NCBI GenBank assembly: GCA_009392915.1
Contig: CP045477.1
Coordinates: 320,001 to 384,000, forward strand
Direction of reading: 5' to 3'
Source of the DNA: Candidatus Forterrea multitransposorum CG_2015-17_Forterrea_25_41
GTDB taxonomy: Archaea > Iainarchaeota > Iainarchaeia > Iainarchaeales > CSSED10-239
Length of the DNA stretch: 64,000 nucleotides
The position numbers and the translations under genes were made by a program. Of this stretch, positions 10,532-58,856 are shown one piece after another (position 1 is the first letter of the stretch; the number at the start of each line of letters is the position of its first letter). The notes beneath the pieces were generated by a model. That model saw nothing but the letters and a program-made list of their open reading frames with translations. It was not told the origin of the DNA and did not search any database.

Positions 10532-11086
10532 ATGTATTCTTTATTATTCTTAACAATTTATGTTTTAATCTATTATTTTATTATTTATAAGAAAACTAAA
10601 CATTTAGATCTTACAAAAGAAACTATTGAAATGTTTAAAACTGATTTTGCAACTTCTCTTTATATTTCTATTTTTTATTTAGTTTTACTGGTTTCTTTAG
10701 TTTATTATGTTTTCTTTACAAATTTTTTTAAATTAGAAATGTTAGATATTCTTGGTGTTTTTTTAATTATTTTTTCAGGAATAATTGAATATCATGGAAT
10801 AATTAGTTTAAAAGATAATTATTATCCTCAAGTTGGTATGGAAAAATATTTAGTAACTAATGGTATTTTTAAGTATATAAGACATCCAATTTACTTATCA
10901 GGAATTTTTTTAGGAACTGGCATTATTATTCTTTTTTCAAAGGATATTTTTATTTATTTATTTATAATAATAATTATAACTATTATTTATAAAGTAGAAT
11001 CTGAAGAAAAATATTTACTTAAAAGATTTAAAGATTATAAAAAATATACTAAAAAAAGTTATAAGTTAATACCTTATATTTACTAA
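10532..11086 (+). CDS. Isoprenylcysteine carboxyl methyltransferase-family membrane methyltransferase
   Basis: 'IRHPIYLSGIFLGTG' RHPxY motif of the ICMT/PEMT family; 184 aa; multi-TM. Confidence 0.6.
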   Translation: MYSLLFLTIYVLIYYFIIYKKTKHLDLTKETIEMFKTDFATSLYISIFYLVLLVSLVYYVFFTNFFKLEMLDILGVFLIIFSGIIEYHGIISLKDNYYPQVGMEKYLVTNGIFKYIRHPIYLSGIFLGTGIIILFSKDIFIYLFIIIIITIIYKVESEEKYLLKRFKDYKKYTKKSYKLIPYIY

Positions 11087-27631: not shown

Positions 27632-30600
27632 ATGAAAACAAAAAGACTTTGGGCAATATTTTTTTTAATATTAATGATAAATGGAGTTTTTGCATCTACA
27701 ATAGATCCAAACAGAGTATTTTCAACTGAAGATACATCTTATTATTTTGATGATGCTATTCCAATTAATTATACAGATGAACCTATAAACTATACTCAAG
27801 ATAAAGTTATTTCAGAATGTTACACAGAAGAGCTTTCTCCTGAAGCTGTAGAAAATATTTGGAATGAGATTTTAGTTAATGGTTTTAAAGCTGATTTAAT
27901 AACAAGTGATCAACCTGCAAACTTAAATAGAGAAACATTAAAAGCAAATGAAGTTATAATTACAGACAAAGATACAAAATCAGGAGATGTTGTAGGAAAA
28001 ACAGAAATTCCTGATAAAATAATGGATCCTTTAGAAGTTCCAACTATTTTAGGTCAAGTATGTTATGGTCCTTTTTCAAGTGGACTTGATCTTGATAGTA
28101 CCCTAAGAGTTGGAAGATGTGCTGGTGGAGACCAAGCAGCTTGTTATCTTGAAGGAGAAGGATTATTTAGACAAAATGGAAGTTATGGTTTTATTGATCA
28201 AACTTTTTCTGTAAGTAAAGATTTTTTAGATATGTTAGGTCTTAAAAAATTAGAAGAAGTTTCAAATGAATTAATTGACCCAGAGTTAGATTATGATACA
28301 AATGTTGATTTAGGTTTATTTTCTGATATGTCTTATGAAGAACTTGCAGAGTTTAGAAAAAGTCAATTTCAAGATAGTAATTTAACTGAAATAGATATTA
28401 AAAAAATGGAATTAGTTTTAGATAAAGCTATTGAAAACAGTATGTTTACTGATTCTTTTAATGCAAGTATGGAAAGCACTTGTAATTCTGATAATTGTTA
28501 TATTAACATGTATTCTCTTTTTGACAAAGTTTTTAATCAATATTATTCTGCTGATATGGTATTTACTTCAGCATCTCCTGTTCTTTGGAAATTTACTGGA
28601 AAAATATTTAGAAATGTACCAAATAAACTTGGAGCTCAAAAATTAATTGCATCTGATAAGATTGGTGGAATAAGAGGTAAAAATGGTTTTTTAGATAATT
28701 TTTTAAATAAAGATATGAGTGCAGTAAGTTCTGCAGTACAAACCTATAAATATTCAAAGATTACAAAAAACATTGATGATTATGCTGCTAAACTTGCAAA
28801 AAGTAATGACAATATAATCAAGAATATTAATAGATATAACATGAAACCAGAGTTTGATAAATATGTAAATGCTTTAAACTCTAAAAAGAATGCAGACACA
28901 ATTAAAAATGAATTCTTTAAAGATGGAGCTTTTGCAAAAATGAATAAACCTCAACAAAGAGTGTTCATGGAATCTGTTCTTGAATATCAAAACAATATTA
29001 GAACAGTTAGAATGGTACAAGATTTTACAACTGATAATTTAAAAAATACTTTAAAAGAACCTCTTGAAAATTTATTTAATAAATCTAAAACAATGGAAGA
29101 CTTTTATCAATCTTTAACAAAAGAAGAATATGATCTTTTACTTGAAGAAACAAAAAGATTAAATGGTCTTAATAAATCATTTTCAACATTTACTGAAAAT
29201 AAATTTAAATGGGATGATGGTGCTGATAATATCACTCTTTTAAAAGAAAGAGGAAAAATAATTAATGATGAAGAAGTTTTATTAAATAAAGTAAGACTTA
29301 AAAATGAAGTAACTTCAACAGAACTTACAGGATCTTCTAAATTTGGAGATATTATTTCTGAAAATAAAGTTTCTCCTTTCCAAACTAAAAAAATAACTGT
29401 TAATTTTAAAGATGGTCCAAGTGAGGTTGAAGTAATTATTCCTTTTAAAGAAAAAATAAGTGATACTTCAACTATGCTTAATTATAATGATATAATATAT
29501 AACAAAAAACCAGATGTATTAATAGAATATGTTGCAAAAGATGGAACTGCAAAAAAAGTGAGAGGCTCTGTAATTGATATTGGAGATGTTGATCCTGGTA
29601 AACAAATAAATATGAGAGATATTAAAGATACTGCAGTTCCTGATGCAGAACTTTCAAAATATGGAATTAATCCTTTAGAAGTATCTTATGGTTATTTACA
29701 AGAACTTGGAATTAAAAAAATAAAAGATGCAGAAATAGTAACTGATGGTGTCGTAAGTGTTTTAAAAGACCAAGGATGGAGTACAGGAAGAGGATTAAGT
29801 TATATAAATCAAAGAATGAAACAACAAACTGTAACTCAATGGGATAAAAGAGGATTTAATATAATGTCAGATTCTGCAAAAGCTTATCTTTATAATTTTG
29901 GATATTGGCAATTTAAAACAGCTGGTTCAACTATATTTGGTGGAGCTTTTGATAGATATAGTATGTTTAGAATACCAGAAACATATACTTCTATTATTTT
30001 TAAACATGGTGAAAGTGGAGATATATACAATGATTCTTATATAGATTTCTTTGCAAATGATGGTTCTGATCAAGGAGATCTTTTTATGGATTATTTTAAT
30101 TCAATTATATTTTGGATGGTAAATCTTCCTAAAGGTGCTTTAGAAAACACAGAGTGGGAAACAACACAAGGTTTTTCAAACTGGATAACAGAACTAACTG
30201 AAGGACATATAAGAAGAAGTTCTACAGATAATATTGCAATATTAACTGATGCAATGAACAATAATTGTTCAACAACTTCTTGTCATATAAAAGTTGGAGA
30301 CTCTTCTCTTCTTGAAGAAGTTACAAGAAGTAAATCTATGGATGCAAATAATTCAACATCTACAAGTCTTAAGAAAAATATTGAAGTTAATTATGCAACT
30401 GGAAATGCAATAAAAACAACAAGTTATATTTTAGAAAACACAAGTGAAGAAAACTTTGAAGAAGAAGGACAAACATTAATTGCATTTTCTCATCATACAG
30501 ATTATGATGGTTCTCTTGCAGGTTTTAACTCTACAGATTCAGTAAATCTTTTACAATCAATTAACGAAGAAGAAACTTGTTCTGATAAACTTAAAAATTT

Positions 30601-32521
30601 AGAAGTCATGGGAATACCAATAGGTTGGACAAACCAAATAACAGGAAAATCATATAGAGCAGGTGCTGTTGCAGCTGGTTTTTCAAATATTGTTTATTAT
30701 TCTTTAAGTGTTCCTCAACACAGAGTAGTTTTAGGAGCAATTTTTGGTGATATTTTACCACAAGTTGTAATTGTTCCAGAAATTTATAATTGTGTAGATC
30801 ATGAAGAAGGTTATTATTCACATTTCTTTGTTGCCTCTGAAGAATATGAAAGAATTGAAAAAGATCCAAAAAATAAAGTTGGAGATGCAATTTCAAAAGG
30901 AGCAGATTCTGTTGAAAAGAGTTTAACAAATATTACAAAGAACACAGAACTTCAAGAATCAATTTCAAAAACAACACAAGAAGTAAAACAATTTGCTGAA
31001 ACTGAAATTAAAGATAATCCAATTATGCAATCAAGAATAGAAACACAAGGTAATACTTCTGGATCAATGAATGCTAAACTTTTCTTCCTTGAAATTGGAG
31101 AAAGTTCAATGTGTAGAGCAAGTGGTTATAATGATAAAGGTGTTGAACATTTAGTTGATTCTAAAACAGGAGAAACTTTAGTTGTTGATAAAGAAGAAGG
31201 TGTTGTTGAAATTGTTGATAAAGATGGAAATGTTAAAGAAATAATTTCTTCAAAAAATAAAGATTGGGTAAGACTAATGGCAACTAACTTAGGAATTCCT
31301 GCAAAAGTAATTCCTCATAGTCTTTCATATATCCCTGTACCTGACACAAATACTCCTTTGTTTAATATTGATGTTTATGGTAATCTAAAGATAGATGATG
31401 CTGAATTTTTAAGTTGTTTAAAAAGAAATTACTATGAACAAACTGGTCTTGAAATGAGTGGTAATACTTTAACAGAATATTTAGGTTCTGTAAAACAAGT
31501 AATCACAACAAATAATTTAAACCCAGATAGTCAATATGACATAATACCAAAAGGAATGAATAGTTCAGCAGAAATAATAGCAGAAGGAACTCCAAGAAAA
31601 ATAGCTTCTGGTGAATCTGCAAGAATAAATGTTCTAGGAAACAGAACTACAAAATTATATCCTATTGAAGGAAAAGAAGTCACTCTTGGTAAAAATATTT
31701 CTGTTCAATTTGAAAGAGGACAATTAATCTATAATGGAGAAAAGAATAGTTATATTATGTGGGTTGAACAAACCTATGTAATGCATCAATCTGAAATAAA
31801 AGGAATGGATGTTGATCCTATAAAAGAAACTAATCCTGAAACTGGTTGTGAAGAAGATGCCTTTGAAATTAGTGTTTCACCAGATACTTCTAACCCTGAA
31901 GCTGTTAAAAAGTCAGAAAATATGAATAAAGCTTTAGAAAAAGTTGGACCATTTAAGATGTTTGATACACCTACAAAAACATTTATTTTCTATACAACAG
32001 AACCTCCAGAATGTCAAAATAGAATGAAAATTATAGATAAAGAAACAGGACAAGTAATTGATCAAGCAATTGATGAAATTATAACAACTCCTGATGGATT
32101 TATTGTAAGAACAGAAGATGGACAAGAACATAATTTTGAATTTAGTGCAGAAGATGGTGTCCCTAAATTAAAGTATAATGATCAAACAGAAACTTTACTT
32201 TCAGCACAAGGTAAAAATGGTTCTTTCTGGTATGATCCTAAGACAGGTAATTGGTATACAGAAAACGGTCACTTAATACCATTTGATCCAGAATACAGAG
32301 ATGGAATGACATTTAAAGTTGGAGAAGATGGTAAAGCTTATGGAACAACAGTTAATAACCTTCTTGGAAATCCAGCTGCAACAGGAGGAAGTGATAGAGG
32401 TACTTTAAATCTTCCATTAACTCCTGAAAAAATACTTCCATTCACTCTTTATATCTTAGTAATAATGGCAAGTTTTATGTACTTGTTTTCATCTAGAAAT
32501 CAAAAATTTAAGAAAAGGTAA
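27632..32521 (+). CDS. Giant (1629 aa) secreted surface protein with C-terminal TM anchor
   Basis: N-terminal signal peptide 'MKTKRLWAIFFLILMINGVFAS'. Single C-terminal TM 'ILPFTLYILVIMASFMYLF' followed by basic 'SSRNQKFKKR'. Cys pairs near the N-terminus. No recognisable catalytic motif. Confidence 0.6.
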   Translation: MKTKRLWAIFFLILMINGVFASTIDPNRVFSTEDTSYYFDDAIPINYTDEPINYTQDKVISECYTEELSPEAVENIWNEILVNGFKADLITSDQPANLNRETLKANEVIITDKDTKSGDVVGKTEIPDKIMDPLEVPTILGQVCYGPFSSGLDLDSTLRVGRCAGGDQAACYLEGEGLFRQNGSYGFIDQTFSVSKDFLDMLGLKKLEEVSNELIDPELDYDTNVDLGLFSDMSYEELAEFRKSQFQDSNLTEIDIKKMELVLDKAIENSMFTDSFNASMESTCNSDNCYINMYSLFDKVFNQYYSADMVFTSASPVLWKFTGKIFRNVPNKLGAQKLIASDKIGGIRGKNGFLDNFLNKDMSAVSSAVQTYKYSKITKNIDDYAAKLAKSNDNIIKNINRYNMKPEFDKYVNALNSKKNADTIKNEFFKDGAFAKMNKPQQRVFMESVLEYQNNIRTVRMVQDFTTDNLKNTLKEPLENLFNKSKTMEDFYQSLTKEEYDLLLEETKRLNGLNKSFSTFTENKFKWDDGADNITLLKERGKIINDEEVLLNKVRLKNEVTSTELTGSSKFGDIISENKVSPFQTKKITVNFKDGPSEVEVIIPFKEKISDTSTMLNYNDIIYNKKPDVLIEYVAKDGTAKKVRGSVIDIGDVDPGKQINMRDIKDTAVPDAELSKYGINPLEVSYGYLQELGIKKIKDAEIVTDGVVSVLKDQGWSTGRGLSYINQRMKQQTVTQWDKRGFNIMSDSAKAYLYNFGYWQFKTAGSTIFGGAFDRYSMFRIPETYTSIIFKHGESGDIYNDSYIDFFANDGSDQGDLFMDYFNSIIFWMVNLPKGALENTEWETTQGFSNWITELTEGHIRRSSTDNIAILTDAMNNNCSTTSCHIKVGDSSLLEEVTRSKSMDANNSTSTSLKKNIEVNYATGNAIKTTSYILENTSEENFEEEGQTLIAFSHHTDYDGSLAGFNSTDSVNLLQSINEEETCSDKLKNLEVMGIPIGWTNQITGKSYRAGAVAAGFSNIVYYSLSVPQHRVVLGAIFGDILPQVVIVPEIYNCVDHEEGYYSHFFVASEEYERIEKDPKNKVGDAISKGADSVEKSLTNITKNTELQESISKTTQEVKQFAETEIKDNPIMQSRIETQGNTSGSMNAKLFFLEIGESSMCRASGYNDKGVEHLVDSKTGETLVVDKEEGVVEIVDKDGNVKEIISSKNKDWVRLMATNLGIPAKVIPHSLSYIPVPDTNTPLFNIDVYGNLKIDDAEFLSCLKRNYYEQTGLEMSGNTLTEYLGSVKQVITTNNLNPDSQYDIIPKGMNSSAEIIAEGTPRKIASGESARINVLGNRTTKLYPIEGKEVTLGKNISVQFERGQLIYNGEKNSYIMWVEQTYVMHQSEIKGMDVDPIKETNPETGCEEDAFEISVSPDTSNPEAVKKSENMNKALEKVGPFKMFDTPTKTFIFYTTEPPECQNRMKIIDKETGQVIDQAIDEIITTPDGFIVRTEDGQEHNFEFSAEDGVPKLKYNDQTETLLSAQGKNGSFWYDPKTGNWYTENGHLIPFDPEYRDGMTFKVGEDGKAYGTTVNNLLGNPAATGGSDRGTLNLPLTPEKILPFTLYILVIMASFMYLFSSRNQKFKKR

Positions 32522-39973: not shown

Positions 39974-40585
39974 TCATTTTTTTTCTTCAACAAAAAACTT
40001 AAAGAAAATTGCAATAAAATTATGAATAGAATGTGCAATTGCAACAAAAATTAAATTTGTATAAAAAACATATATCATAGCAAGTAAAAATCCTTCAATA
40101 AAAACTAAAAGTAAGTCTAAATTTTTACGACTATAAATAACATGAATATACATGAAAAGTAAAGAATTAATAAAAACAACCATAATTGAAGAATTAAAGA
40201 TATCAAATAATTTAGGAATTAAATAACCTCTAAAAATAAATTCTTGTAAAAAGCATAAAGGAATAAAAACTAAAATATGGAATCTTTTTTCATGCCAATA
40301 ATGAATATAATGTTCTCTTTTTAAAACATATTTTGAAAGATAAATAATTGCAACAGAAACTAAAACAGTAAAAGCAATATATGGAAATATATGATTATCA
40401 ATATTATCAAATCTAATACCTAAATCATAAAATGTCATTCCTTCAATTATTATAAAGAAAATAACTATTAAAAAAATAGAAAAAAGAACATGTAGTCTAT
40501 ACTTAAAAGGAATAATTTTTTTATATAAAAGATATACAGGTAGTACAAAAACAAGTAATACCTGTATTATTGATATTAAAAACAT
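39974..40585 (-). CDS. CPBP (CAAX) family intramembrane metalloprotease
   Basis: 'LQEFIFRGYL' (EExxxR-type motif), 'FMYIHVIYS' and 'HSIHNF' (HxxxN); 203 aa; 6 TM. Confidence 0.65.
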   Translation of the reverse strand: MFLISIIQVLLVFVLPVYLLYKKIIPFKYRLHVLFSIFLIVIFFIIIEGMTFYDLGIRFDNIDNHIFPYIAFTVLVSVAIIYLSKYVLKREHYIHYWHEKRFHILVFIPLCFLQEFIFRGYLIPKLFDIFNSSIMVVFINSLLFMYIHVIYSRKNLDLLLVFIEGFLLAMIYVFYTNLIFVAIAHSIHNFIAIFFKFFVEEKK

Positions 40586-41945: not shown

Positions 41946-42338
41946 TTATAAAGAATAAACTTCTTTATAAATTCCATGAATATTACATAAAGCCCTAATT
42001 GTAACTTTTCTTCCTAAAGGAACTTTAAAAACAACTTCTGGTTTATCCCAATAATTAAGACTCTTAACATATAAAGACCCATCAACAGAAATTTCAATCC
42101 ATTTAATGAAATGTTCTTGTGTCATTGGATGCATAGGATCTCCAATCTTAACATATATTTCTTTTTCGCCTCTAATCTCTATATAAGGTTTATGAATATC
42201 TTCATTTGATGTAACTTTTTCTTCTTTAATTTCAAGATCCATTTCTTTACCACAACAAACTAAAGTTCCACCACCAATTTCTTTTAGTTCTACAACATTT
42301 CCACAAACTGAACATTTATATTTATCTCCAACTTCCAT
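41946..42338 (-). CDS. Desulfoferrodoxin (2Fe superoxide reductase)
   Basis: N-terminal desulforedoxin 'YKCSVCGNVVEL...LVCCGKEM' is nearly identical in pattern to Dfx 'YKCxxCGNIVEV...LVCCGEPM'. C-terminal SOR domain with 'HKPYIE ... CNIHGIY'. Confidence 0.85.
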   Translation of the reverse strand: MEVGDKYKCSVCGNVVELKEIGGGTLVCCGKEMDLEIKEEKVTSNEDIHKPYIEIRGEKEIYVKIGDPMHPMTQEHFIKWIEISVDGSLYVKSLNYWDKPEVVFKVPLGRKVTIRALCNIHGIYKEVYSL

Positions 42339-42514: not shown

Positions 42515-44941
42515 TTAAATATTTTCTCTAATTTTTGATTTTGAAAAACCAGCATCTAAAAGATCTTCTTCTGAATAACCAGCAAGTCTAAGCTCTTCTA
42601 AACTATAACCTACACTTCTAAGTTCTCTTGCAGAAAAATGTAATTCTTTAAGTTCTTTGGCACCATAATGAATAACTTTCATAAGTCTAATTCCAACACC
42701 TAAATCAAAAACATCTTTTGCAGGATAACCAGCATAATGAAGTTGTCTTGCAGTATATCCTACATCATAAAGATCTTTTGCAGAAAATCCACCTTCTTTC
42801 ATAGAAGATGCATCATAACCTGCAATTTTTAAATCTCTTGCAGAATAATATGGATTTAAATCTTTTGGATAAAATCCAGCTTGAGACATTTCTTTTGCAG
42901 TATATCCTGCATTATAAAATTCAGAAATTGGTATACCTAAACCATAAAGTTCTTTTGCTTTATAACCTGCAAATCTAATAGTTGAAACATCAAAACCAGA
43001 ATCATACATTTCTTTTGCAGTATATCCTGCAGCATGATATTGTTTTGCAGTATATCCAATACTTAAAAGTTCTTTTGCACTAAATCCAGCTCTTCTAAGT
43101 TCAAGTAAAGAAAAGCCTTCTAAATGAAGTTCTAAAGCAGTAAATCCTGCAAGTCTTAAATCAATTAAATTATAACCATTTGCAAGGAAATCTTTTATTG
43201 TACATCCAAGCATATGAACTTCTCTTAAAGAATAACCACCTTCAAGTAAATCAAAACATGTACATCCAGCATTCTTTAAATCAATTGCTTTGTATCCAGC
43301 TTCTTTTAAATCTTTAATAGTATAACCTAATTTTAAAAGTTCAGGTATACTGTACTTTAAATATTTAAGTTCTTCTAAAGATACAACTTTATCATCTGAA
43401 AGAACAACAGGTTCAATAGGTTTTAAAGCAATTAACTCTGAAATATCAAATCCTGCTTCTTTAAGTTCATCAATTGTAATTCCATTTTCATATAATGGTT
43501 TTGCAGAAATTCCTTCTTTTCTAAATCTTACAAGAGGAATCTCTTTTAGAAGTTCTTTATAAGTAAAACCAATATCTAAAAGTTCTTTAATTGTAAATTT
43601 TTCTGCAACAATTTCTTCTAAAGAATAAACATCTTTAATTTCTTTTAAAGTATATCCTTTTTTTAGTAATTGTTTTAATGTAAATATTTTTGAAAGATCT
43701 TTAATTGTAAAACCACAATCTAATATTTCTTTAAGTTTATAACCAGCAGAAACAATTTCTTTTAAAGAATAACCAGCTTTTTTAAGATCTTTCGCAGGAT
43801 ATGCATATTCTTTTAATTTTTTAGCTCTAAATTTTGCATCTCTTAAATCTTTTGCATCAAATTCTGCAAAAAGAATTGAATGTTGATCAAATTTAACTTT
43901 CTTTAAATCACTTGGAGTATATCCTAAGTTTTTAAGATCTTTTGTTGAAATTCCTGCTTTCTTTAATTCTTTTAAAGAAAAATTTACATCATTAATTTCT
44001 TTAGGAGTATATTGTAGATAATAAAGATCTTTTGCAGTGAAGCCAAGTGACTTTAATGCTTTTGCATTATATTTATGTTCTTTTAAAACTTCAGCTGTTA
44101 AGCCATATGAAAATATTTCTTTTGAAGACATTTTTTTTAAAGTTTGATCATTAATAACTATTTTTACAACTTCTTCTTTTTTATTTTCAACTTTTTCTTT
44201 TTTTGCTTTTTCTTTTTTAATTTTATCTGTTTTTTCTTTTTTGCTTTTTACTTTTTCTTTTGGAAATTTATTTAAAGGTTTTATTTTTTCTTCTTTAATT
44301 TTAATTCCAATTTCTTTATCTGTAAAACCTGCTTTTCTTAACTGATCAATACTATATTTTGCTTTTTTAAGTTCTAAAATAGTATATGTACCTTGATATA
44401 GTTCTTTAGCAGTTAAACCAATATTTTTTAATTGTGATGCATCAAAACCTGCTCTCTTTAAATCTTTAACACTAAAACCAACTTCTAAAAGTTGTCTTGC
44501 AGTAAATTTAACTTTTTTTAATTCTTTTGAAGTATAACCTACAGATTTTAAATCTTTTAAATTAATTCCAAGTTCTTTTAAATCTTTTAAAGGAAATCCT
44601 GCAACTTGTAAATCTTTAACTGAATAACCTACAGAATAAAGTTCTTTTGCAGTAAAATCTAAATTTCTTAGATTTTGAGAACTAAAACCAACTTCTTTTA
44701 ATTTCTTAACAGTAAAGCCTGCTTTTTCTAAAGTTCTAGCCTTAAAGCCTAATCCCTTTAAAACAGTATAATTTGCTTTTACTTCATTTAATTTTTTTGC
44801 AAATTCTGTTTTATTTATTTTAAATTTTGAAAAAATAGAAACTGTTATTGGAGAAATAATATATCTTGAAGGAGAACTGATTTGTTTCTCTAAATATTCA
44901 TTTAATTCTTTTTTTGTTAAATTTTTTAAGTCAATAGCCAT
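42515..44941 (-). CDS. 808-aa cytoplasmic protein composed of ~60 tandem 11-residue repeats
   Basis: Repeat consensus [AG]-G-[FY]-[ST]-x-K-[DE]-L-[KR]-x-x, e.g. 'LKKAGYSLKEIVSAGYKLKEILDCGFTIKDL'. No signal peptide. Central K/E-rich linker 'KIKEEKIKPLNK...KEKVENKKEE'. Confidence 0.6.
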   Translation of the reverse strand: MAIDLKNLTKKELNEYLEKQISSPSRYIISPITVSIFSKFKINKTEFAKKLNEVKANYTVLKGLGFKARTLEKAGFTVKKLKEVGFSSQNLRNLDFTAKELYSVGYSVKDLQVAGFPLKDLKELGINLKDLKSVGYTSKELKKVKFTARQLLEVGFSVKDLKRAGFDASQLKNIGLTAKELYQGTYTILELKKAKYSIDQLRKAGFTDKEIGIKIKEEKIKPLNKFPKEKVKSKKEKTDKIKKEKAKKEKVENKKEEVVKIVINDQTLKKMSSKEIFSYGLTAEVLKEHKYNAKALKSLGFTAKDLYYLQYTPKEINDVNFSLKELKKAGISTKDLKNLGYTPSDLKKVKFDQHSILFAEFDAKDLRDAKFRAKKLKEYAYPAKDLKKAGYSLKEIVSAGYKLKEILDCGFTIKDLSKIFTLKQLLKKGYTLKEIKDVYSLEEIVAEKFTIKELLDIGFTYKELLKEIPLVRFRKEGISAKPLYENGITIDELKEAGFDISELIALKPIEPVVLSDDKVVSLEELKYLKYSIPELLKLGYTIKDLKEAGYKAIDLKNAGCTCFDLLEGGYSLREVHMLGCTIKDFLANGYNLIDLRLAGFTALELHLEGFSLLELRRAGFSAKELLSIGYTAKQYHAAGYTAKEMYDSGFDVSTIRFAGYKAKELYGLGIPISEFYNAGYTAKEMSQAGFYPKDLNPYYSARDLKIAGYDASSMKEGGFSAKDLYDVGYTARQLHYAGYPAKDVFDLGVGIRLMKVIHYGAKELKELHFSARELRSVGYSLEELRLAGYSEEDLLDAGFSKSKIRENI
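42560..44900. repeat. 33-bp periodic coding repeats (11-residue protein repeats)
   Basis: Degenerate 33-nt periodicity throughout the 808-aa repeat-protein gene, inferred from the regular [AG]G[FY][ST]xK[DE]L repeats in the translation. Confidence 0.5.
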
Positions 44942-54348: not shown

Positions 54349-55050
54349 CTATTTATAAGCTTTATAAATTTCATTAAAAATAATAAATGTTACAAATATA
54401 TAAATATAGATAAATATTATTGTAAAAATACCTATTAAATAATAACTAATACTAGGAAATAGTAAAGTTAATATTGAAAGAACTAGTATATATCCTATTA
54501 GAAGAATAATTAAATATCCTAAAAGATAGAAAAAAGAAACTAACATATTTTTTGTAAAAACTATTTTAAAATGTTTTTTAAAATTAAAAAAATCTTCAAA
54601 TCTACCTGATTTAATATAAGACATATAACCTATGTTTTTTACAAATTCTAAAACTAAATAACAAAAAATAACTATAATTAACAATAGAATAACTATTAAT
54701 AGACCTGAATTAAATGAAAAAACATTTTCAACATCTATACTTGATTTAAGTAAAAATACTGGTATTAACAATATTATTGATATAATACCTTGAAATATTA
54801 AATATAAAAAAGATGCTATAAAATAAACTACAGATAGTTCAAATATTTTTAAAATTGTTTTAGAATTATAATTTTTAAGACTTGATAAAATATTTGCACC
54901 AACAAGTCCTATTGATAAAAAAACAGTTAAAATAATTGAAATTAAAGAAGCTGTACTTCCTAAAATAGTAATTAAGCTTAATATTAATATTATAAGTAAA
55001 AACTTAAAATTAATAAAAGGTATTTTTAAAGAGTTTTTAAATTCCATCAT
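54349..55050 (-). CDS. Polytopic membrane protein
   Basis: 233 aa, 6-7 TM. Confidence 0.4.
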   Translation of the reverse strand: MMEFKNSLKIPFINFKFLLIILILSLITILGSTASLISIILTVFLSIGLVGANILSSLKNYNSKTILKIFELSVVYFIASFLYLIFQGIISIILLIPVFLLKSSIDVENVFSFNSGLLIVILLLIIVIFCYLVLEFVKNIGYMSYIKSGRFEDFFNFKKHFKIVFTKNMLVSFFYLLGYLIILLIGYILVLSILTLLFPSISYYLIGIFTIIFIYIYIFVTFIIFNEIYKAYK

Positions 55051-55150: not shown

Positions 55151-56092
55151 CTATCTTCTTTTCTTAATAAGAGAAGATCTTGGTTTTTTATCTTCTTTTT
55201 TCAAAACAGTAGTTTTTGGCTTAGGTGTTATATAACGTGCATATTTTAAAAATAAACTATGATTACTTGATTTACTTGGATCAACAACACTTAAAATTCC
55301 AATTTTGTTTTTCTTATTTATGAAGATAATATCAAAATTAAAGTATTTTTTACCTTTTTCATAACCAATACCAACACCAGGCATAAATAAAGATTTATCT
55401 CCCTTAATATTATAAGTTCCTCTAACTTGCCAGTACATATCTTTTAACTTAGTATCTCTAGCACTGAAAAAACCAAGAGCAGCTGTAAATGATTTTTTTT
55501 TGTCAGCAGCAAAATTAACCTCACCTATTCCAGAATAATTAGTTAATTTACCATTATTAAAATTTAAACTTACTGCACCTAATACTTTTTTACTAATTAA
55601 AGCAGCTTGTGCTCTAGAACCTTTTGATGCTTCAACAATATTAAATCCTTCAAGTTTATAATTATTTAATTTTTTATCAAAACCAATTTTTAAATTTATT
55701 TCTTTACCAAAAATTTTTGAAAGATTTGCAGCAAGGTTTACTTGTTCAAATAATTTATCAGTAGTAGGTTTTTTATCAAATAATAATGTATTTGTACCTA
55801 CAGTTAAACCTAAATTATATTTCCCTTCCATAAATTTATTTTTAAAATCAGCACCATATCTGGCTTCAAATGATTGAAATAAAAAATCTTTTTGAGTTAT
55901 GGTTGTACTTAATAAAGCAACACCATTTTTTTCCATAGAAGGTGTTAAACCAGCATAATTAGACAATTGCTGTGCTTTCACAGCAGGTAAAGTTAATGAA
56001 CCTATAACAATAGGTAACCCTGCAACTAATATCTTTGAATCTTTTAAAACTGCAGAAACAAAATCTTTAAAATCATTAAATTTATAAGTCAT
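55151..56092 (-). CDS. Secreted beta-rich protein (signal peptide)
   Basis: Hydrophobic N-terminal segment 'ILVAGLPIVIGSLTLPAVKAQQ'. Alternating polar/hydrophobic pattern, e.g. 'GVGIGYEKGKKYFNFDIIF'. Basic C-terminus. Confidence 0.4.
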   Translation of the reverse strand: MTYKFNDFKDFVSAVLKDSKILVAGLPIVIGSLTLPAVKAQQLSNYAGLTPSMEKNGVALLSTTITQKDFLFQSFEARYGADFKNKFMEGKYNLGLTVGTNTLLFDKKPTTDKLFEQVNLAANLSKIFGKEINLKIGFDKKLNNYKLEGFNIVEASKGSRAQAALISKKVLGAVSLNFNNGKLTNYSGIGEVNFAADKKKSFTAALGFFSARDTKLKDMYWQVRGTYNIKGDKSLFMPGVGIGYEKGKKYFNFDIIFINKKNKIGILSVVDPSKSSNHSLFLKYARYITPKPKTTVLKKEDKKPRSSLIKKRR

Positions 56093-56200
56093 AATTAATT
56101 TTCCTTTTTTATAAATATTTTAAACAACAATTAATTTATAAAGATATTCTTTTACTTATTAATTATAATAGATTAAAAGAAATTAAAAAGAAGAACAAAA

Positions 56201-56776
56201 ATGATAAAGAAGTATGATAATTTAGCTTTATTAATACACCCAATGTATTCAATAGTTACTGACATATATAGAAATACAACAGGTATGGGTAAAATCACTT
56301 TTAAAGAAATGGAAAGTGAATATGTAAAGAGATTAAATGTCTATAAAGAAAGTATTTCTTCTTTTAAAAACACAAATACTCTTTTTGTACTTGTTGAACC
56401 TACAAAAGATTTAATGAATTTTAAATTAGAATTTTTCTATAAGCATATGATGGAAGATTTATATGTTTTTGCAAAAAAAGAACTTGGTCTTTCTTTTAGA
56501 AAAATAACAGATCTTAATTATCTTTCAGATATTAAAAAAATAACACCTACTCTTAAAAAAAATATTGGAGTTTTTTCTTTTGGAGAGCATAGAGAAGTTT
56601 GTGTTAAAACATTTAATGAATATACAATTAATTTTTTAAAAGAAAATAATTTTAAACCTATTTCTAAAGGAATACAAATAAAATTTTCATTTGATATTGA
56701 AAATAAAAGATTAAGACAAGTTCAAAAAGAAAAGCCTAAACCAAAGCCAAAAAAAATAATAAAAAAAAGAAGATAA
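56201..56776 (+). CDS. Hypothetical protein
   Basis: 191-aa ORF with K-rich C-terminus. Confidence 0.3.
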   Translation: MIKKYDNLALLIHPMYSIVTDIYRNTTGMGKITFKEMESEYVKRLNVYKESISSFKNTNTLFVLVEPTKDLMNFKLEFFYKHMMEDLYVFAKKELGLSFRKITDLNYLSDIKKITPTLKKNIGVFSFGEHREVCVKTFNEYTINFLKENNFKPISKGIQIKFSFDIENKRLRQVQKEKPKPKPKKIIKKRR

Positions 56777-56781
56777 GAAAT

Positions 56782-56937
56782 TTAAGCCATTAATATTTCT
56801 GTATGACCAAAACATCCACAAGAGTCAGAACCGCAATCTCCTGCTTGTAAAATATCTGTATGTGTGAAACATCCACAAGAGTCTGAACCGCAATCTCCTG
56901 CTTGTAAAGTATTTAAATTAAAATTTTCTGTATTCAT
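56782..56937 (-). CDS. 51-aa Cys-rich peptide with internally duplicated 19-aa motif
   Basis: Not in the ORF track. Minus-strand translation: MNTENFNLNT-LQAGDCGSDSCGCFTHTDI-LQAGDCGSDSCGCFGHTEI-LMA*. GAGGT SD lies 8 nt upstream. A 57-bp tandem DNA duplication underlies it. Confidence 0.4.
   Translation of the reverse strand: MNTENFNLNTLQAGDCGSDSCGCFTHTDILQAGDCGSDSCGCFGHTEILMA
56812..56925. repeat. 57-bp tandem duplication (2 copies)
   Basis: 'aacatccacaagagtc[a/t]gaaccgcaatctcctgcttgtaaa' recurs with period 57. It encodes the duplicated peptide motif of the 51-aa Cys-rich ORF. Confidence 0.7.
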
Positions 56938-56997
56938 ATTTTATAACCTCTTTATATATTTTAATTATTAAAAAAAATAGTTTTTAAAAATAATATT

Positions 56998-57025
56998 CGC
57001 CTGCAAGCTTGGCGGAAAGCTTAAG
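56998..57025 (-). repeat. 28-nt conserved tRNA 3'-trailer element (copy A, after tRNA-Ala)
   Basis: Minus-strand sequence CUUAAGCUUUCCGCCAAGCUUGCAGGCG immediately after the discriminator. 27/28 identical to the sequence after tRNA-Gly. Contains a self-complementary AAGCUU...AAGCUU hairpin; a U-rich tract follows. Confidence 0.7.
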
Positions 57026-57098
57026 TGGACTCTGCGAGATTCGAACTCGCGGCCTCGTCCTTGCAAGGGACGCGCTCTACCAGCTGAGCTAAGAGCCC
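57026..57098 (-). tRNA. tRNA-Ala (UGC)
   Basis: GGGCUCU acceptor with the G3:U70 identity pair; anticodon loop CUUGCAA; T loop UUCGAAU; discriminator A; no CCA. Confidence 0.85.
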
Positions 57099-57360
57099 TA
57101 ATAACTATTGAACCAATATATTATATATATTATAGAACAAAAATATTTATAAACACATCAGATTTATTTTTAATCAAAATTATAAAAATAAAATTATGGA
57201 CTGATAAATATACTTTTAAAAAAATATTATTAAATAAAAAAAGAAAAATTTCTTATAATTAAAGAAATTTTGATGTGTGGAAGAAAAACAAACACTTCAG
57301 GTTAGGTAAGTTTTTAAAACTTTTAAAATAACAACTAACATTTAGTCATTATATAAAATA

Positions 57361-58856
57361 GGAGGTGATCCGTCCGCAGGTTCCCCTACGGACACCTTGT
57401 TACAACTTAGTCTACCTCGCGAAATATAGAATAACTTTATCCTTTAGTAGAGTAAAGTTCATCAACACTCCACTCGGTTGGCTTGATGGGCGGTGTGTGC
57501 AAGGCGCAGGGACATATTCACCGCGTGATAGTGACACGCGATTACTGGGGATTCCAGCTTCATGAGGGTGAGTTGCAACCCTCAATCCGGACTTAGACTA
57601 AGTTTTTGAGATTGCCACCCCTTTTCAGGTTAGATACTCTTTGTCTTAGCCATTGTATGCCGCGTGTTGCCCAGAACATTCACGCTATACAGACCTACCT
57701 TCGCCCACTCCTTCCTCATTGTTACCAATGCAGTCCTATTAGAGTGCCTTCTTTTGCAAGCAAAAAAAGTAGCAACTAATAGCATGGGTCTCGCCCGTTA
57801 CCTGAGTTAACAGGAAGCTTCACAGTACGAGCTGACGATGGCCATACAGCAGTTCTCAGCGCATCAGGTAACCCCTTCAGAGTGACCATCATATTGCTGT
57901 CAGCCCTGGTAAAATATCTGGCGTTTCATCCAATTAAACCGCAGCATCCACCCCTTGTAGTGCACCCCCGCCAATTCCATTAAGTTTCAGTCTTGCGACC
58001 ATACTTCCCAGGCGGTGAATTTAATGGTTTCCCTTCGGCCCTGAGCTAACTCGTAGTTAACCCAACACCTAATTCACATCGTTTACGGCTGGGACTAACC
58101 GGGTATCTAATCCGGGTTGCGCCCCCAGCTTTCGTATCTCACTGTCGAATCCGTACTCGTTAAGCGCCTTCGCCACAGGTGGTCTTTTTAGTATCTTAAG
58201 ATTCTACTCCTACTCTAAAAATACCCTTAACGTCTTCCGGTTCCTAGTCATGCCAGTATCTTTTGCAATTCAACTAGTTAGGCTAGCTGCTTTCACAAAA
58301 GACTTAACAAACCAGCTACACACGCTTTAAGCCAAATAATGCTGGATACCACTTGGGGATTACGTATTACCGCGGCGGCTGGCACGCATATTGCCCTCCC
58401 CTTATTCACATAGTTATTCACACTATATAAAAGCTTACATAGTAAGCACTTGGAATCTCTTTATCACGATTTCTCGCATTGTAAAAGTTTCGTAACTGCT
58501 GCACCCCGTAGGGCTAGGGACATTATCTCAGTTCCCTTCTCCGGGCTACCTCTCTCAAGGCCCGTACAGATCTTCGGCTTGGTAGGCAGTTACCCTACCA
58601 ACAACCTAATCTGGCGCAGTCCCATCCTTTCGCGCCAAAGAAGCATGATTCTTTGACCTTTAAAATAGTAATCATTCCAGATTTACTTTTTTATAGAGCA
58701 TTATACTCAGTTTCCCGAGTTTAACTCTTCAAAAGGGTAGGTTGACCACGTGTTACTGAGCCGTTCGCCAAAACCTCTCATAGCTGAGGCTTTAAGACTT
58801 GCATGTCTTAGTCAGATTCCAATAGCAGTATCCACCAGCAGGATCAGCTGGAATTG
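57361..58856 (-). rRNA. 16S rRNA (archaeal type)
   Basis: Plus strand shows the RC of the 16S 3' end ('aggaggtgatccgtccgcaggttcccctacggacaccttgttacaactt') at 57361. It carries the RC of GTGCCAGCCGCCGCGGTAATAC at ~58366-58387. The 5' end is ATTCCAGCTGATCCTGCTGG (RC at ~58837-58856). Length ~1.49 kb. Confidence 0.9.

Follow-up and report, generated by a model that had tools for sequence, protein, structure and literature searches.

What kind of product, if any, is made from the short interval between a protein gene and the tRNA-Ala gene beside the 16S rRNA gene of the archaeon Candidatus Forterrea multitransposorum? The window analyzed here is a stretch of 64,000 nucleotides of contig CP045477.1 (positions 320,001 to 384,000 of the forward strand), in which an open reading frame (ORF) of 51 codons plus a stop codon lies on the minus strand at 56782..56937 and is translated to MNTENFNLNTLQAGDCGSDSCGCFTHTDILQAGDCGSDSCGCFGHTEILMA. 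A first-pass annotation of the bare sequence had described this ORF as an unannotated gene for a Cys-rich peptide, either metallothionein-like or the precursor of a peptide that is ribosomally synthesized and then modified post-translationally (RiPP). With high confidence, we conclude that the ORF is a genuine, translated small gene restricted to one genus, and its coding status is taken as established, short of proteomics. For the product, the sequence makes metal or thiol binding more likely than a role as an antibiotic-like precursor.

The 51-residue translation quoted by the first-pass annotation was reproduced exactly, and the placement of the ORF between a protein gene and tRNA-Ala, beside the 16S rRNA gene, was confirmed by the tRNA, rRNA and ORF coordinates. 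The peptide contains 6 Cys, 2 His, 7 Asp/Glu and 3 Phe, with no Lys or Arg. Its Cys residues (C16, C21, C23, C35, C40 and C42) form two C-x4-C-x-C clusters; the two clusters had been recognized correctly, but a count of eight Cys had been given. Direct-repeat detection delimited two units of 57 nt in tandem, both on the minus strand: unit 1 at 56848..56904 (codons 12-30, LQAGDCGSDSCGCFTHTDI) and unit 2 at 56791..56847 (codons 31-49, LQAGDCGSDSCGCFGHTEI). The tandem repeat is thus real, but its units are identical at 50 of 57 nt (88%) and not at 55 of 57 as had been stated. At the protein level 17 of the 19 residues agree, and the internal duplication is therefore not exact. Nor had the peptide escaped standard annotation, as was supposed: an identical protein is in GenBank (NCP72129.1, NCP79304.1, NCP98527.1 and NCQ07071.1) under the name "hypothetical protein GW835_01925 [archaeon]." At least 43 public contigs, up to 840 kb long, carry it as a called gene, and it occurs in 101 index blocks of public assemblies, and the exact peptide is also encoded on a metagenome contig of 663,621 bp.

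The reading frame was then compared among relatives. It was open in all 11 lineages compared, and each of the other five frames contained stops in every lineage. Pooled over five phylogenetically independent pairs, the ratio of nonsynonymous to synonymous differences (pN/pS) was 0.48 (Fisher p = 5.8e-7), and the pairwise ratios of nonsynonymous to synonymous substitution rates (dN/dS) of the gene were 0.22-0.72. All indels in the gene were multiples of three, including those of 12 and 30 nt, and the variable alignment columns were distributed over the codon positions as 17/27/38. The frame is thus conserved and under selection, which favors coding. A Shine-Dalgarno sequence, GAGGT, is located at 56946..56950 on the minus strand, 8 nt 5' of the ATG as the first-pass annotation had noted, and is complementary to the 3' end of the 16S rRNA (..GAUCACCUCC). 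It is kept in 12 lineages as (A)GAGGT(A/G/T)AT, 7-9 nt from the ATG where this distance was measured. Strong Shine-Dalgarno sequences are rare here; a core of even 4 nt was found for only 14 of the 62 ORFs of the window.

The same data bear on the alternative that the ORF is not a gene but a GC-richer non-coding element, such as an rRNA-operon trailer, a processing signal or a small RNA, that is open by chance. Its location, in the slot where the 23S spacer would be, its local GC content (~37%, compared with ~24% for the genome and a range of 18-34% in the window) and the tandem DNA repeat itself could all be expected of such an element. However, the minimum free energy of the region was no better than that of shuffled sequences (z = +0.70), the consensus fold reached only -2.97 kcal/mol with 0 covarying or compensatory pairs, and a scan against Rfam gave no match other than a sub-threshold chance hit. 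The repeat thus showed neither RNA structure nor covariation but a coding signal, consisting of the codon-position bias, the in-frame indels and a pN/pS below 1. Furthermore, in lineage L026 two protein genes are inserted between tRNA-Ala and the ORF, and both the ORF and its Shine-Dalgarno sequence survive this separation. We therefore regard a non-coding element as extremely improbable.

How widely is the peptide distributed, and what is constant in it? A word-seeded search and two profile searches yielded ~13 homologous protein clusters of 51-57 aa. One of the profile searches was exhaustive over 1.84 billion representatives and added only four peptide clusters; its matches to long proteins (P0009 and P0012) were rejected as spurious repeat matches. 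Scans of genome, metagenome and viral collections provided few or no additional loci. All carriers have 16S rRNA identities of 96.7-99.9% to the window, corresponding to roughly one genus of very small, symbiotic DPANN archaea. Every true member of the family consists of exactly two units. Each unit begins with a hydrophobic residue in the motif [FL]-x-A-G, continues with a loop of 6-9 residues rich in Gly, Ser and Asp that holds 2-3 Cys, and ends with x-[ST]-H-x-[D/E/N]. The Cys pattern of the loop is mostly C-x3-4-C-G-C, with C-x-C-G-C or just two Cys in some units, and the loop is followed by G-[CS]-x-[ST]-H, in which the invariant His stands three residues after the Cys loop. The invariant columns are A13, G14, G22, H26, G33, G41, H45, I48, L49 and A51. 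No single Cys is invariant; individual Cys shift or are exchanged for Ser (TGT to TCT), leaving 4-6 Cys per peptide, and each unit retains at least two Cys and the His. The linker between the units measures 0 or ~10 residues. The N-terminus, with 7-13 residues ahead of the first A-G, is the least conserved segment, and the C-terminus, H-x-[E/N/D]-I-L-[M/I/V]-A, is strongly conserved.

In many cases the two units of one peptide resemble each other more closely than they do the units of its orthologs, as seen in the window, in L027 and in L022 (15 of 16 residues); in L027, 17 of 18 residues are identical despite five synonymous differences. In proteins P0004 and P0005, the two unit types stand in opposite order, which indicates that the units recombine and are functionally interchangeable. 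A 32-aa homolog that appeared to have a single unit (P0006, L014 and L019) was rejected because the repeat had collapsed during assembly: within the same metagenome-assembled genome, contig L017 stops inside unit 2, and contig L019, in which the units are fused, begins 67 nt upstream. In this way, short-read assembly breaks at the 57-nt repeat or collapses it (L014, L017 and L019), leaving a false one-unit peptide of 32 aa in public protein sets.

What, then, may such a peptide do? We tentatively read it as an unmodified, disordered metal- or thiol-binding mini-protein that acts inside the cell. The peptide would serve as a set of thiolate and imidazole ligands, buffering or chaperoning a soft metal (Zn, Cu(I), Ni or Fe/Fe-S) in the manner of a metallothionein or, equivalently, acting as a redox-active dithiol peptide. 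The two modules might bind one metal each or jointly close one cluster. This reading is drawn from the obligate pair of equivalent modules, the drifting Cys alongside conserved His and Gly, the extreme acidity, the predicted disorder, an N-terminus that is short and not conserved, and the lack of processing genes in the scope searched. In an AlphaFold2 model based on a 12-sequence alignment, the peptide had a pLDDT of 40.6 and no secondary structure; low confidence is as expected for the apo form of a metal-thiolate peptide. The metallothionein-like idea of the first-pass annotation thus fits the peptide better than does its RiPP idea, but membership in a known metallothionein family was not borne out.

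Several observations weigh against a metal- or thiol-binding mini-protein. Neither the peptide nor any of the 12 members gave a significant match in Pfam or NCBIfam, and no similarity to a known metallothionein or zinc-finger family was found in Pfam, NCBIfam or Protein Data Bank (PDB) searches; the PDB sequence profile search gave chance-level matches alone (best E = 0.29). The Cys density of 12% is below that of classical metallothioneins (typically 15-30%); the peptide does carry C-G-C motifs, and its Cys drift in position as those of metallothioneins do. Selection is only moderate (pN/pS of 0.25-0.70), and peptide identity drops from 92% to 38% within the genus. Interchange of Cys and Ser is also typical of azole- or lanthionine-forming RiPP cores, and the x-A-G before and the [ST]-H-x-[DE] after each Cys loop resemble cassette recognition sequences. 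The search for maturases covered ~10% of the ~0.66-Mb genome, and a distant maturase is possible. With regard to expression, the DNA between the tRNA and the ORF is ~85% A+T and promoter calls in it are unreliable, and the hairpin and T-run that follow tRNA-Ala in the window could act as a full terminator of the rRNA transcript. The rate at which the peptide diverges is itself similar to that of the neighboring membrane and orphan proteins and faster than that of thymidine kinase or FEN1.

Some of these features would be accounted for if the peptide were a two-cassette RiPP precursor. Each unit would then be a core, the Cys/Ser/Gly/Asp loop, set between recognition or cleavage sequences, with the hydrophobic-x-A-G motif as a double-glycine-like site before the core and [ST]-H-x-[DE] behind it. 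Heterocyclization or cross-linking of Cys and Ser would be carried out by enzymes from other parts of the genome, which would release two similar small peptides rich in thiols or azoles. The free interchange of Cys and Ser within the loop, flanks that are better conserved than the loop, units that are near-identical within several peptides, fast evolution and the lack of a predicted fold are all compatible with this proposal, and the 57-aa forms carry a copy of the N-terminal "NLxxLQAG" ahead of the second unit. RiPP clusters have been reported across DPANN archaea (PMC12144867). In one relative, L022, a radical SAM (rSAM)/SPASM RiPP-like cluster lies 5.7 kb from the peptide gene, indicating that the clade can make RiPPs.

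However, the N-terminus of 7-13 residues, the least conserved part of the peptide, is too short for a canonical leader bound by a RiPP recognition element (usually at least 20 aa), and the number of units stays at two throughout the true members, which sets them apart from known multi-core precursors. The best matches to precursor families (NCBIfam/TIGRFAM) were obtained with single members only, at E = 0.03 (ocin_CLI_3235), 0.67 and 1.1. Maturases were sought by Pfam on most window ORFs of at least 90 aa; for the last 17 kb of the window and the ±10 kb flanks of the relatives, annotations computed beforehand were used. Among the window ORFs scanned, which cover most of the 64 kb, there was no gene for a radical SAM protein, YcaO, a lanthipeptide enzyme, a C39 protease or an ABC exporter. 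The annotated flanks of the relatives likewise lacked genes for YcaO, lanthipeptide enzymes, C39 proteases and ABC exporters, and no maturase in them was attributable to the peptide. Radical-SAM genes do occur in L022 and L023, but they have their own precursor or are unrelated, and they are absent from the window. A look for nearby maturases, as the first-pass annotation had suggested, therefore produced none in this scope. Literature searches on archaeal metallothioneins and DPANN RiPPs brought up nothing on this particular peptide. The short variable leader, the lack of a maturase, protease or exporter in the scanned window ORFs and the flanks examined, and the lack of a precursor-family match all weaken the RiPP idea, and we consider it unlikely.

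Three candidates for a processing system were tried and rejected. The L022 cluster (L022 15861-18726, downstream of the peptide gene and absent from the window) encodes an Asn/Lys-rich peptide of 52 aa whose C-terminus reads ..GTCGEKPCKGKYQ, a radical SAM protein of 387 aa that is Cys-rich (SPASM-like) at its C-terminal end, and a PPDK_N/PEP-utilizing enzyme of 511 aa; the 52-aa precursor is also found at L024 4813-4965. Because this cluster comes with a separate, unrelated precursor and nothing in the window corresponds to it, it was discarded as the maturase of the peptide. The second candidate combined two window genes into a CAAX-type processing pair, an Rce1-like CAAX-type intramembrane protease (39974-40585, minus strand) and an ICMT/PEMT-like membrane methyltransferase (10532-11086, plus strand). 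The peptide ends in E-I-L-M-A and has no Cys at -4, the genes are 16 and 46 kb away, and neither is linked to the peptide. The third was the convergent neighbor of the peptide gene, a 191-aa protein encoded at 56201..56776 on the plus strand, 5 nt from the stop codon of the peptide. This protein is restricted to the clade, and its AlphaFold model is an alpha/beta fold (pLDDT 78.5) with no significant match in the PDB (best E = 0.03, TM 0.33). In L001, L003 and L020, which are the closest relatives, the locus lacks the gene. It therefore offers no functional lead.

The obligate two-unit architecture could also belong to a structural zinc micro-protein, in which the two units would together enclose one Zn as the pair of knuckles of a mini zinc-ribbon and the hydrophobic I-L-x-A C-terminus would bind a partner, such as the neighboring DUF4013 membrane protein or a protease or chaperone. 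The invariant His, the invariant Gly beside Cys as in knuckles, and the invariant C-terminal I-L-x-A would all fit, and 4 of 12 members have weak similarity to zf-CCHC_4 "zinc knuckle" (E of at least 0.15). The DUF4013 gene (54349..55050, minus strand) lies downstream on the same strand wherever the region was captured, and it is the immediate neighbor of the peptide gene in L001, L003, L014 and L020. However, the ligand positions drift, whereas structural Zn sites are normally fixed. The motifs are C-x3-4-C-x-C and not the CxxC/CPxCG of knuckles, and AlphaFold, which usually recognizes zinc ribbons, returned the low confidence given above, with no match in the PDB sequence search. The synteny with DUF4013 is uninformative within a single, wholly syntenic genus; for the same reason, the neighborhood as a whole carries little functional weight. 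A zinc micro-protein seems quite unlikely on these grounds.

In L001, L003 and L020, DUF4013 follows the small, Cys-rich ORF on the same strand at a distance of 90-140 nt, an arrangement that would suit a cis-acting regulatory leader peptide whose translation senses the supply of Cys-tRNA or sulfur and controls DUF4013. However, in the window, L022, L025 and L026 the convergent gene (179-193 aa; stop codons 3-7 nt apart) directly follows the ORF, so that no controllable gene lies downstream, and the ORF is still under selection. In addition, Cys codons are replaced by Ser codons in many lineages, and the invariant residues are not Cys but A-G, His and I-L-x-A. The gene order of the window contradicts a leader peptide, which is largely refuted and has a very low probability.

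How might the peptide gene be expressed? The tRNA-Ala(TGC) gene (57025..57098, minus strand) is directly upstream, 87 nt from the ATG, and is preceded by the complete archaeal 16S rRNA gene (57360..58854, minus strand). The order 16S, tRNA-Ala, peptide on one strand was found in 12 of 12 lineages whose upstream region could be read. No 23S or 5S gene was found after 16S and tRNA-Ala anywhere in the 64-kb window; the rRNA genes are thus unlinked, a frequent situation among DPANN archaea. The mini-protein gene occupies the position of the 23S gene after tRNA-Ala. From this arrangement, we infer that the ORF is expressed from the 16S-tRNA-Ala transcription unit or from a promoter of its own directly behind it. 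The distance from the tRNA to the ATG is only 38-41 nt in L010, L011, L027 and L028, too little for a TATA/BRE promoter to fit upstream of the Shine-Dalgarno sequence; in these four lineages, the 5' end of the mRNA would thus be made by 3' processing of the tRNA.

In the remaining lineages the distance is 87-231 nt, and a hairpin and T-run element follows the tRNA. In the window, this trailer element (56986..57024, minus strand) comprises two overlapping, mutually exclusive short hairpins (AAGCTT/AAGCTT and CGCC/GGCG) and a T5 run. Its stem varies on both sides between lineages (AAGCTT/AAGCTT; TCAACTT/AAGTTGA, 7 bp; AAGCTG/CAGCTT). The element has no counterpart in four lineages and is tandemly triplicated in L022 (L022 9770-9900). 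Situated between the tRNA and the ORF, it is probably a signal for termination or processing, and in the window it probably lowers read-through into the ORF. On the 3' side of the ORF, a region with two T8 runs (56740..56781, minus strand) overlaps the part of the convergent gene that encodes its Lys-rich C-terminus; these oligo-T runs, an archaeal termination signal, may serve as the terminator.

Taken further, these observations allow a speculative proposal, to which we assign only a slight chance. The two-module thiol peptide would be the trailing cistron of the 16S-tRNA-Ala operon in the 23S slot, its mRNA freed by 3' processing of the tRNA, and it would be made in step with ribosomes. It would be either the main gene-encoded low-molecular-weight thiol or metal buffer, replacing glutathione-like cofactors that the symbiont cannot make, or a leaderless precursor from which two small peptides, rich in thiols or azoles, are cut for interaction with the host.

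The peptide was also compared with known systems. Among prokaryotic metallothioneins, the copper-binding MymT of Mycobacterium has ~48-53 aa and 7 Cys (PMC13519478). The two are alike in being stand-alone, gene-encoded peptides of ~50 aa with no stable apo fold and a lineage-restricted distribution. They also resemble each other in motif style, with motifs of the C-x-C and C-x4-C type and His nearby. The window peptide differs from MymT in its clean two-unit repeat, its far greater acidity and its lower number of Cys (4-6 in its family), and no metal-responsive regulator is known for it; no sequence homology to MymT was detectable in a comparison made indirectly, via family libraries only. SmtA/BmtA (PF02069) is a small prokaryotic Cys/His protein that binds metal, as the window peptide is predicted to do. 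In Pfam, neither the window peptide (E <= 1) nor any of 12 members (E <= 10) matched PF02069. The zinc-finger-like fold of SmtA is fixed and its ligand positions are conserved; in the present family these positions drift.

Chelating Cys-Gly-Cys motifs are found in the C-terminal ..GCGCH tail of SlyD and, as C-G-C, in acetyl-CoA synthase, and nitrile hydratase has C-x2-C-S-C; binding of Ni, Co, Cu or Zn by thiolates and backbone amides is the chemistry expected of C-G-C motifs. The family shares with these chelators the invariant Gly between two Cys and the His or acidic residues close by. In the known cases the motif lies within a larger protein, whereas here, in duplicate, it accounts for nearly the entire protein. 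Multi-core RiPP precursors (the cassettes of cyanobactin PatE) and linear azole peptides rich in Gly, Ser and Cys (microcin B17) resemble the peptide in their repeated Cys/Ser/Gly-rich cores with conserved flanks and tolerated exchange of Cys and Ser, but precursors of this type have long conserved leaders, a variable number of cassettes and adjacent maturases, none of which was found here. For the gene arrangement, the closest parallel is a tRNA-mRNA co-transcript such as the thrU-tyrU-glyT-thrT-tufB operon of Escherichia coli, in which a protein gene likewise lies directly downstream of a tRNA gene; the mRNA 5' end is proposed to arise via tRNA 3' processing. Unlike in the E. coli operon, the upstream unit is an archaeal 16S-tRNA-Ala operon without 23S, and co-transcription is inferred from spacing only. 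The peptide matched no known family, and it showed none of the sequence features that define SmtA-type metallothioneins, zinc ribbons or described RiPP precursors. The family is best filed as a new, narrowly distributed group of Cys/His mini-proteins whose function is predicted.

As known now, the peptide is an orphan, genus-restricted hypothetical protein already present in GenBank and is chiefly a candidate for small-protein studies. If metal binding or a redox thiol function proved true, it would represent a previously undescribed archaeal family of gene-encoded Cys/His mini-proteins and would show metal or redox buffering in an ultra-small symbiont with ~0.66 Mb of DNA. Its fixed place behind 16S rRNA and tRNA-Ala would also make it a testable case of a protein gene riding an archaeal rRNA transcript. 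Translation from an rRNA-operon transcript and metal or thiol buffering in a minimal cell are the points of greatest interest. Because the peptide contains neither Lys nor Arg, tryptic proteomics would never detect it.

A second protein gene may be embedded in the rRNA operon of a relative: an ORF of 79 aa with a Pfam match to the ChaB family lies inside the 16S-tRNA-Ala spacer of L022 (L022 9316-9555) and also of L023 and L024, whereas no ChaB-like ORF was found in the 261-nt spacer of the window. Next to the peptide gene, the 191-aa protein (plus strand) and a 313-aa protein (minus strand) form a two-gene block (55151-56776) that is also present in distant lineages and absent in L001, L003 and L020. 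Both proteins are orphans, with similar Lys/Arg-rich tails (..KKIIKKRR and ..SLIKKRR). Elsewhere in the window, a 1629-aa protein (27632-32521, plus strand) has no Pfam match, and an 808-aa protein (42515-44941, minus strand) consists almost wholly of Pfam "Decapeptide" repeats in 12 stretches (E = 2e-182). A gene for desulfoferrodoxin (superoxide reductase) is located at 41946-42338 on the minus strand, pointing to an anaerobe with a defense against oxidative stress.

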